Assembly: GCA_965219445.1 (NCBI GenBank) | Contig: CBDCNQ010000005.1 | Span: 992,001-1,056,000 of the forward strand | Length of the DNA: 64,000 nucleotides | Direction: 5' to 3' | Origin: Longimicrobiales bacterium | GTDB taxonomy: Bacteria > Gemmatimonadota > Gemmatimonadetes > Longimicrobiales > Gaopeijiaceae | In this document: one piece after another, positions 38,793-40,914 of the stretch | How the letters are laid out: the number at the start of each line of letters is the position of its first letter | Position numbering within the stretch: position 1 is the stretch's first letter | Made by a program: the position numbers and the translations under genes | Notes under the pieces: model-generated | Seen by the model: only the letters and a program-made list of their open reading frames with translations | What the model was told of the DNA's origin: nothing | Database searches by the model: none

Positions 38793-38975
38793 CAGGTATC
38801 TCGAATCTTGAGGTAGGATCAAAGGATCATAGGGGCATGGCGACCGCTACCGGTACCGATCAGCAGCGAAGCAGCCCGAAGACGAAGAGGCGTTCTCCTC
38901 CGGGAGCGGGTGCGCGTTCATCATTATTCGCGCAAGCAAGCAACCCAACCCGTCCTACCCAAGAGGAGGATGCCC

Positions 38976-40031
38976 ATGGAGAGGTATATCGGACTCGACG
39001 CACACGCGTCGAGCTGCACGCTGGGGATTGTAGGCCCCAGCGGCAAGCGCTTGGGCTCGCAGGTGGTGGAGACGAACGCGCGGGCGCTGATCGAGGTGCT
39101 GCGAGGGATTCCGAGGAACCGGCACTTATGCCTGGAAGAAGGGACGCTGTCGGGGTGGCTGTACGAGGTGCTGAAGCCGCACGTGGAGGAGCTGACGGTG
39201 GCGGGGGTCGGCAAGAGCCGGGGCCCGAAGACCGACAAGCTGGACGCGTTTGCCCTGGCGGAGAAGCTGCGGATCGGATCACTGGAGACGACGGTCTACA
39301 AGAACCGGGGCCAGTTCAGGCGGCTGGGGGAACGGGCGAAGAGCTACGACTTCTTGGTCGGCGACACGGTGCGGGTGAAGAACCGGCTCAAGAGCGTGCT
39401 GCGCTCGAGAGGAGTGGCCTACGGCGCGGGGCGCTCGGTCTACTTAAAGCGCGACCGGGAGGAGTGGTTGGCCAAGCTGCCGGAAGCGAGCAGGACGACG
39501 GCCGGGTTGCTGTACGAGGAGCACGACGCACTCGTGGCATTGAGGGCGAAGGCCGAGAAGGCGTTGCTGGCGGAAGCACGCAAGCATCGAGAGTGGCATG
39601 TGCTGAAGACGTGCCCGGGTCTGGGTCCGATCCGGACGGCGGAGCTCCTGCCGGTGGTGGTGACGCCGTACCGGTTCCAGAGCCGGAGCAGGTTCTGGGC
39701 GTACTGCGGACTGGGCGTCGTGATGCGGAGCTCGTCGGACTGGGTGCGGGGTCCGGGTGGGCGGTGGGTAAGGGAACCGGTACAGCAGACGCGGGGGCTG
39801 AATCGGAACTTCAACCACACGCTGAAGCGTGTGTTCAAGGGCGCAGCGACGACGGTGATCGGTCGGGCCGAGGACGAGCCCTTGTACCGCCACTACGAGC
39901 GACTCCTGGAGGGGGGCACGAAGCCGAATCTGGCGAAGCTGACGATCGCGCGTCAGCTCGCCTCGATCGTGCTAGCGGTGTGGCGCACGGGCGAAGCGTA
40001 CGACCCCAAGAGACTGGAAGCGACGGAGTAA
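38976..40031 (+). CDS. IS110 DEDD transposase/recombinase
   Basis: YIGLDAH, LEEG, KTDKLDA, CPGLGP, YCGLGVVMRSS. Confidence 0.93.
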   Translation: MERYIGLDAHASSCTLGIVGPSGKRLGSQVVETNARALIEVLRGIPRNRHLCLEEGTLSGWLYEVLKPHVEELTVAGVGKSRGPKTDKLDAFALAEKLRIGSLETTVYKNRGQFRRLGERAKSYDFLVGDTVRVKNRLKSVLRSRGVAYGAGRSVYLKRDREEWLAKLPEASRTTAGLLYEEHDALVALRAKAEKALLAEARKHREWHVLKTCPGLGPIRTAELLPVVVTPYRFQSRSRFWAYCGLGVVMRSSSDWVRGPGGRWVREPVQQTRGLNRNFNHTLKRVFKGAATTVIGRAEDEPLYRHYERLLEGGTKPNLAKLTIARQLASIVLAVWRTGEAYDPKRLEATE

Positions 40032-40107
40032 ACCGGGCCGGGATCGGCGAGCGTGGGGTCGAAAGCGGTCACAACATGGGGTCCGACGAAACGGAAGCGA
40101 ACCGGTT

Positions 40108-40250
40108 ACAGGGGACAGCATCCATACACACCGTGGGCCGGGGCAGAGAGCCCAAGCCCCCACTCAAAGGCTATGCACCCCTGGAGAGCCGAACGAAGCG
40201 ATGGGCCACAGAGTCCCAGATAGAAGGATGGTTCCCGCTCCAGAGCGGAG
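40108..40250 (+). ncRNA. Putative bridge/seek RNA with two guide loops
   Basis: CAGGGG/CCCCTG stem; TACACACC complementary to the right flank; ATAGAAG identical to the right end. Confidence 0.7.
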
Positions 40251-40914
40251 AACGCGACGGCTGTGAACGTCTTCCGGACTGCGATGCGGACCCTGCGAGC
40301 GCACCCCTCCCCACCCTGAGTCGTCGACCGGGCAATCCAAACCATGCGGACGCCGACGGTCAAAAAATGAGCCGACGGCGCGTGGGGAAGGTGCGTCTTG
40401 ACCGCCAGCCCCATAGAAGGGTGTGTAAAAAGAGAGGCGACGTACCTTTGCGCTGAGATGTAAACCAGCGAGCCCGGGTGAGCGCCCGGGGAAAGGGACG
40501 TCGCCTCATGAGAGAAGATATCGCGGGACCCCGGGGTGCGTCCAGCAGGCCGATATGGGAGACGCTCGAGGGGATGGTTAGGGAGAAGGCGCAGGAGTTC
40601 ATCCAACAGATCATGGAGGAGGAAGTCACGGAGTTGTTAGCAACTGTGTGCGAACTCAAGCTCTGAAGCGTGGGTGGGGTCCCAGGATACGCCGTCTCGA
40701 ACCATAGCGTTGGCGATCACAAGCAACTTACGCATGCAGGCGGTGAGGGCGACTTTCGGAGGCTTGCCACGTTCTGTGAGCCGCTGGTAGAAGACGCGGA
40801 TCGCGGGATTACGCTGACTAGCGGTCAGGGCCGCCATGTACAACGCCACGCGTACGGAACGACGGCCTCCCCAGACCATTCGCTTACCTCTCAACGTACC
40901 CGAGTCCCGGTTCA

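Follow-up and report, generated by a model that had tools for sequence, protein, structure and literature searches.

The IS110-family element IS1383 reportedly targets the inverted repeats of IS1384 in Pseudomonas putida H, and IS4321 and IS5075 are said to insert into the repeats of Tn21. The element described here resembles IS1383 in being an IS110-family element that specifically targets the inverted repeat of another insertion sequence; in this case, however, IS256 is the victim, insertion is confined to its left repeat, and the guides have been identified and covary. With IS4321/IS5075 it shares sub-terminal inverted repeats, an RNA located downstream of the transposase, and a fixed site and orientation inside a transposon end, whereas the target family and the host are different and 23 of the 28 left inverted repeats (IRLs) of one genome are filled. 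The homing of IS110 elements to the ends of other mobile elements is an already published habit, of which the present locus is a clear new example.

The seekRNA elements ISEc11, ISKpn4 and ISPa11 likewise carry a 3′ non-coding RNA with the same order of guides, and ISEc11/ISXne4 illustrate natural reprogramming among close relatives (PMC11187229, in excerpt). Here, reprogramming is seen between relatives of ~80% identity, and in contrast to those elements the RNA is predicted from sequence, has two simple IS621-like loops and is directed at the end of an insertion sequence. IS621 also has a target and a donor loop, a CT core (found here on the minus strand) and a right guide that extends 4-5 nt across the core (PMC11208160, in excerpt), as well as handshake-like dinucleotides after the right guides (PMC11208158, in excerpt). 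However, its RNA lies upstream and targets REP sequences (PMC11208160, PMC11208158 and PMC13626964, in excerpt), whereas the RNA described here lies 3′ of the gene and targets an IS256 IRL. A literature search judged by title brought up no study of IS256 as an IS110 target or of escape from such targeting, although supplements or ISfinder could include one, and the term "IS256" is absent from the main texts of PMC11187229 and 10.64898/2026.08.14.744561.

Here, we analysed a stretch of 64,000 nucleotides from a Longimicrobiales genome (the window), comparing copies of its elements by BLAST across that genome (G000; 4.56 Mb, 5 contigs). A sequence-only reading had proposed that an IS110 in the window carries a 3′ guide RNA with an IS256 terminal repeat as its target, and this main claim is supported. 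We conclude with high confidence that an IS1111-type IS110 has had its predicted 3′ bridge RNA retargeted to the IRL of a Longimicrobiales-type IS256 family; the boundaries, the target, the orientation, the match of guides to flanks and their covariation are direct observations. The element occupies positions 38825-40419 at the end of an IS256 (Table 1). Sequence common to all G000 copies begins at 38810, and the IS110 proper begins after GAGGTAGGATCAAAG. The left end had originally been placed at 38880, and the partial fit of the left flank to the guides, which had been taken as a sign of rearrangement, was an artefact of that boundary: once the left end is set at 38825, the flanking TCAAAG fits its guide in the first RNA unit exactly, so no rearrangement need be invoked. 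Taking out 38825-40419 restores an empty site, there being no terminal inverted repeats and no target duplication, only a short core shared by the two junctions. This core is AG (CT on the minus strand), as fixed by five copies in G178 in which the right junction reads ATAGAAG followed by AGTGTG and the left junction is the usual one. The window copy is without one C at its left junction that is present in 23 of 24 left ends.

Table 1. Features of the IS110 insertion and the interrupted IS256, in window coordinates.
Feature	Position	Strand	Basis
IS256 IRL, outer 15 bp, ending TCAA + core AG (38823-38824; CT on minus strand)	38810..38824	+	G000 copies, empty IRLs
IS110 left end, short, 151 bp	38825..38975	+	genome copies
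Predicted leader hairpin, GGCGTTCTCC (38889-38898) pairing with ribosome-binding region 38965-38974	38889..38974	+	fold
IS110-family DEDD recombinase, 351 aa, open frame	38976..40031	+	PF01548, PF02371, NF033542
Predicted target-binding loop: guide TACACACC (40125-40132), guide TCAAAG (40164-40169), handshake-like GC (40170-40171)	40109..40184	+	alignments, covariation, folds
Predicted donor-binding loop and 3′ hairpin: handshake-like GA (40227-40228) after guide ATAGAAG (40220-40226), whose sequence is that of the right terminus	40186..40250	+	alignments
IS110 right end: TTGACC, sub-terminal repeat (40403-40416), terminus ATAGA + core AG (40418-40419)	40398..40419	+	genome copies
Inner IRL (GGTGTGTAAAA) and 5′ part of IS256 transposase gene (ATG 40508), type B body	40420..40640	+	genome copies
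Second, unrelated IS110 within IS256 gene; bridge-RNA-like region in left end, core CT	40641..42939	-	genome comparison
IS630-type element in left end of second IS110, splitting its predicted target-binding loop	41731..42872	-	genome comparison
IS256 gene continuation, ending abruptly at ~43346	42940..43346	+	genome copies

The organization of the element is that of the IS1111 group, with a short left end and a right end of 388 bp that carries the RNA region (40109-40250). Its sub-terminal inverted repeats (38828-38842 against that of the right end) are imperfect, agreeing by eye at ~11 of 15 positions with one gap, and the IS1111 range is 7-17 bp. Both the DEDD RuvC-like domain (PF01548) and the C-terminal Tnp domain (PF02371) of the recombinase score above the Pfam cut-offs, and NF033542 is matched over its full length at 112 bits, under its cut-off of 140. 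Residues D8, E54/E55, D87, D90 and S252-254 fall at the expected motifs, from which their positions were deduced. A phmmer search of the recombinase against PDB chains gave no match at E 0.001, and a search of viral contigs gave no relative.

The motif GGTGTGTAAAA, which had been likened to an IS256 terminus, proved to be part of an IS256 IRL. Within G000, 23 of 24 IS110 left ends lie at bp 15/16 of an IRL in a fixed orientation, the remaining one being off-target, and 21 of 24 complete right ends are followed by GGTGTGTAAAA; the other three comprise a further insertion, a tandem duplication and the off-target copy. A 25th left-end hit is a 56-bp remnant of a relative. The remaining 5 of the 28 IRLs are empty. 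No IS110 copy was found in any right inverted repeat (IRR) of this genome, and the IRR differs from the IRL target at 2 positions, the core included. Off-target copies (G000 C2:336727, L258 and L276) sit at near-matches of the same guides in which the spacing is one base shorter.

Intact IS256 copies, proposed earlier as a check, bear out the identification of the target, since their IRLs in other genomes read TCAAAGGGTGTGTA. The uninterrupted IRL is GAGCTAGGATCAAAGGGTGTGTAAA in 57 of 63 pattern matches from other genomes (3 variants, 3 unrelated), obtained with a pattern that fixed both outer parts and with one genome contributing many of the 63. Among 313 family genomes searched, 6 others share the right junction. 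Filled and empty sites with identical 40-bp flanks could be paired twice (L037 with L035, L261 with L056), and in these the empty IRL is perfect. Locus L039 of G007 is the empty counterpart of the window's left flank, with 99.3% identity over 37310-38823; because this flank matches but the IRL isoform differs and the IS256 body is 78% identical, the IS256 of the window is probably recombinant. The target IS256 has terminal inverted repeats, 8-9 bp duplications and a sub-terminal TGTAAA, which is a motif of the IS256 family (PMC7780238, in excerpt). An intact type-A paralogue corresponds to NF033543 at 295 bits (cut-off 150), a mutator-type DDE transposase, and the type B copy in the window is 89% identical to it; no IS256 IRR is found within 12 kb of the point at which the window copy breaks off. 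Elsewhere in the window, 2152-2561 is an end fragment of a different IS256 whose repeat is without the target and is not used by the IS110.

The 3′ non-coding region contains the two loop-hairpin-loop units described in the sequence-only reading, as confirmed by alignment and folding, and its three guide motifs are present at the positions reported, as is the right junction ATAGAAG followed by GGTGTGTA (40413-40427). Across 24 aligned RNA sequences the scaffold is conserved and the guide positions are variable. On the minus strand the site follows the layout of IS621, with TACACACC-CT-TTGA as the target and ATGATGC-CT-TCTAT as the donor, such that the first guide corresponds to the 8 bases before the core and the second pairs across the core and with 4 further bases. 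The order of the guides is that of IS1111 elements, with the top-strand-complementary TACACACC preceding TCAAAG; the rule for that group is that the guide complementary to the top strand comes first (PMC11187229, in excerpt). The dinucleotide GC that follows the right target guide is identical to the donor bases adjoining the core in 17 of 18 relatives, as a handshake would be, and in L120 handshake and donor dinucleotide change jointly from GC to GT. Donor guide and right terminus change together in L116; in L119 they do not (wobble). For the second donor guide the best candidate is a stretch of only 4 nt, GATG (40200-40203), and the assignment is not firm. It had been proposed that GAACG guides the donor by pairing with CGTTC (38891), but this site lies ~65 bp inside the left end and GAACGAAGC belongs to the scaffold, being unchanged in all 24 of the 24 RNAs aligned; GCGTTCTCC instead folds onto the ribosome-binding site of the transposase. 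In this predicted leader hairpin the anti-SD motif is conserved in 15 of 18 relatives and the SD-side motif in 17 of 18. The 3′ tail of the RNA, GGAGAACGC (40247-40255), is complementary to the strand that masks the ribosome-binding site (duplex -18 kcal/mol; motif in 15 of 18 relatives), and on this modelled pairing it could turn on translation of the transposase in trans. As for structure, compensatory changes lend the predicted stems modest support: 98.8% of alignment cells are paired and 3 of 32 pairs are changed on both sides, a level reached by 75 of 500 shuffles; the whole right end folds with z = -1.45, and Rfam has 0 families across the window.

Covariation of guides with flanks among homologues, another check put forward earlier, was analysed with 80 metagenome loci and the genome loci, of which 29 rows fitted the scaffold pattern, keeping one row per distinct guide. 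Guides and flanks covary: the 12 right guides agree with their own flanks at 83 positions, where shuffling gives 53.7 (p 2e-5), and the 9 left guides at 51, where it gives 37.5 (p 4e-4), the relatives in both comparisons not being independent. These values use a best-of-three register rule chosen after the fixed-register result, which was p 3e-4 (right) and 0.018 (left). The motifs are short and the genome is G+C-rich and repeat-rich, conditions under which guides might match by chance, or GGTGTGTA might be part of the IS110 itself. We give such an explanation practically no credence: the chance that the flanking 8-mer and 7-mer both occur in the 390-nt end is ~7e-5 on a rough estimate, the same motif stands in uninterrupted IS256 ends of genomes that lack this IS110, and relatives share the terminus but have other flanks that match other guides, which places GGTGTGTA outside the element. 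It is already refuted by the intact IRLs, the covariation and the filled/empty pairs. Since most relatives at 65-83% identity carry another guide pair, the IS256 target is a derived retargeting. In most relatives (L110-L189, L278-L298) the targeted site is a repeated one that resembles GGATAG-GAAATCCAAACG, in many cases with a G+C-rich hairpin and GGTAGG after it. A 56-bp left-end remnant of a related IS110 at G000 C2:661546-661604 (minus strand) also has a flank of the relatives' type.

According to the model, in which circle formation, RNA expression and strand exchange are taken over from work on IS621 and ISEc11 (PMC11208160, PMC11208158, PMC11187229 and PMC13626964, in excerpt), the IS110 would form a circle whose junction sets TTGACC (-35) 17 nt from CATCAT, creating a predicted promoter; a promoter scan of the linear element found 0. 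The recombinase and its RNA would then engage both strands of IRL bp 10-23 through loop 1 and the circle junction through loop 2, followed by strand exchange at the CT core aided by handshake pairs. A different IS110 is reported to use an alternative copy-out route (10.1101/2025.10.25.684509, in excerpt). In read mapping, at the level of contigs, three DNA-type contig sets cover the IS110 with no circle joint listed, no joint of an empty site was seen, and one RNA run covers the IS256 part only.

The transposase of ISCth4, an IS256 family member, binds repeat bp 1-12 and 14-25 and needs both (PMC7780238, in excerpt). By analogy, insertion after bp 15 would move the two sites that the transposase binds in the IRL 1.6 kb apart, and because the sites are separated a filled IS256 copy would no longer be self-mobile; filled copies are thus probably immobile. 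If so, the locus represents RNA-guided control of one IS family by another. The IS110 would gain a multicopy, dispensable landing site that overlaps the needed TGTAAA motif, and IS256 would keep supplying further copies.

IS256 copies would, on the preferred reading, have been hit singly, after IS256 had spread. Alternatively, a few IS110 insertions could have been followed by movement of the IS256::IS110 composite as a unit by the IS256 transposase, a route that we judge improbable. Seven filled G000 copies do each lie within their own 8-9 bp duplication, and all 5 filled copies of G178 share the unusual right junction that fixed the core, for which no empty site was found. However, 22 full IS110 copies present 21 distinct haplotypes, the median difference among IS110s carried by 11 identical IS256-A bodies is 16 positions (1-31), and the right flanks of the sole identical IS110 pair are not the same. 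At least three IS256 lineages include filled copies, and the filled/empty pairs at one site also argue against a composite, as do the dual binding requirement of the ISCth4 transposase (bp 1-12 and 14-25; PMC7780238, in excerpt) and, weakly, the fact that no composite circle joint is listed in the contig sets. Recombination between copies, common to judge by cross-matching duplications, could blur haplotypes. Judged from these sequences, the filled copies do not look like a single amplified composite, frequent recombination keeping the haplotypes short of proof.

The perfect 14-mer target has 0 occurrences in G000. All five empty IRLs (C4:199262, C4:1221680, C5:267938, C5:483712 and C5:635832) are altered, each differently, the variants being TCAGAAGG, TCGAAGG, TCAAGG, TCAGAGG and GTGAGTA. 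Three of the altered IRLs belong to IS256-A bodies identical over 1365 bp, for which a rough Poisson estimate gives a chance of ~2e-6. The altered sites may be scars, escape variants or assembly artefacts.

We entertain, tentatively, the explanation that the changes are real marks of the IS110, either scars of imprecise excision or survivors that evade the guide, with immune variants spreading in an arms race. The changes add donor-like bases adjoining the core. Within G178, a single IS256 lineage (97-99.9% identical) comprises 5 filled copies and 10 empty ones that all have a changed core; 8 of these 10 share one variant, and at least 4 of the 8 lie in 8-9 bp duplications. By hand tally among the matches listed, 6 of 27 empty sites are perfect in six genomes with at least two filled copies, as are 28 of 30 in eight of the nine genomes that lack the junction; by genome, again among the matches listed, perfect empties number 0/5 (G000), 1/4 (G007), 0/2 (G177), 0/10 (G178), 1/2 (G135) and 4/4 (G132). 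However, in the ninth non-carrier, G336, which likewise has no junction, the IRL core is changed in 37 of 40 copies, and with it the nine non-carriers have 31 of 70 perfect sites (among the matches listed). Genomes that lack the IS110 (G118, G133) also have two of the five variants, and the variation falls in the stretch separating the two transposase-binding sites, where neutral changes would be expected. L039, considered as an individual escape mutant, was rejected, its IRL being the isoform amplified in G336. Nor does heteroduplex at the handshake readily account for the altered sites, as positions 6-7 of IS621 lie on the other side of the core (PMC11208158, in excerpt).

In its full form, with the IS110 filling and disabling every perfect IRL, free copies altered at IRL bp 12-20 and scars made by the recombinase conferring immunity, the arms race seems rather doubtful to us. 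We are similarly sceptical of its extension, in which immune variants spread (G178) and IS110 siblings either alter their guides (ATCAAAGG, ACCAAAGG, ATCACTAGG) or shift to the IRR. One sibling, L192, whose protein is 95% identical, does have other guides and a left end in the IRR; however, only the left junction is in the IRR, and its right flank is not IS256. Perfect sites also persist beside the element: G131 has one IS110 copy with identical guides beside 43 of 45 perfect empty sites, and G132 has 6 IS110 copies beside 4 of 4. A match between guide and target therefore does not guarantee a sweep. The cross-genome pattern of altered empties is suggestive in that it fits an arms race, and neutral variation, in the part of the repeat under the least constraint, would fit it as well.

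It would also be possible, although we think it unlikely, for the altered sites to be consensus artefacts in which bases of the IS110 right end leak into an empty site, either at loci occupied in only part of the cells or because reads of the 23 filled copies entered the polishing. A mix of TCAAAGG and ATAGAAGG would be expected to yield TCGAAGG, TCAGAAGG and TCAGAGG, TCAAGG has lost one base of an A run, and the assembly was drawn from a genome collection. However, no errors appear over 1365 bp in 15 copies of the IS256-A body, GTGAGTA does not resemble the donor and belongs to a diverged copy, and a 3-nt duplication at a G007 junction (L002), together with the missing C in the window, suggests real imprecision. 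The locus offers a natural data set for bridge-RNA targeting, with one guide, 23 on-target insertions, known empty and off-target sites, target variants and retargeted siblings, and it supplies substrates with which to test the tolerance of an IS1111-type recombinase with 7-8 nt guides to mismatches and changes of register.

The IS256 gene of the window is interrupted by a second IS110, and it had been suggested that two unrelated RNA-guided recombinases both targeted one IS256. Their co-location stands, but the second element uses a short consensus that is not specific to IS256. It is single-copy in G000, and its six near-identical copies (in G014, G245 and G286; two partial) all lie outside IS256 and share the short consensus only, for which reason we rejected it as an IS256 specialist. 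Insertion within IS256 is seen only in the window and at one G007 locus, at the same IS256 position, and two type-B IS256 copies in G000 have its site free.

An intact orphan bridge RNA at 31240-31423, after the ISPpu9/ssr9 idea (PMC12288879, in excerpt), was also considered and rejected, as only 31334-31423 matches the donor-loop half. This 90-bp segment is what remains of a related bridge RNA, with neither a transposase nor element ends; the 3.2-kb region that contains it is also present in G132, and G138 shares the upstream DNA and not the remnant.

Further minor observations concern both families. At IS256 ends (e.g. G000 C4:199262-200648), TTGACC in the IRR and TAGGAT in the outer IRL would form a junction promoter with a 6-bp spacer, as judged by eye, and its predicted -10 lies just upstream of the IS110 insertion point. 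The target duplications of G000 IS256 copies on C2-C5 match across copies and contigs, which points to inter-copy rearrangements or misjoins. The IS110 at L265 (G132) is flanked by an off-target site on the left and by IS256 on the right, and is either a chimera or a case of IS256 captured as adjacent DNA. Finally, the 3′ part of the IS110, including the RNA region, is tandemly duplicated at G000 C5:1611126-1614615 and at L190 (G043/G177).
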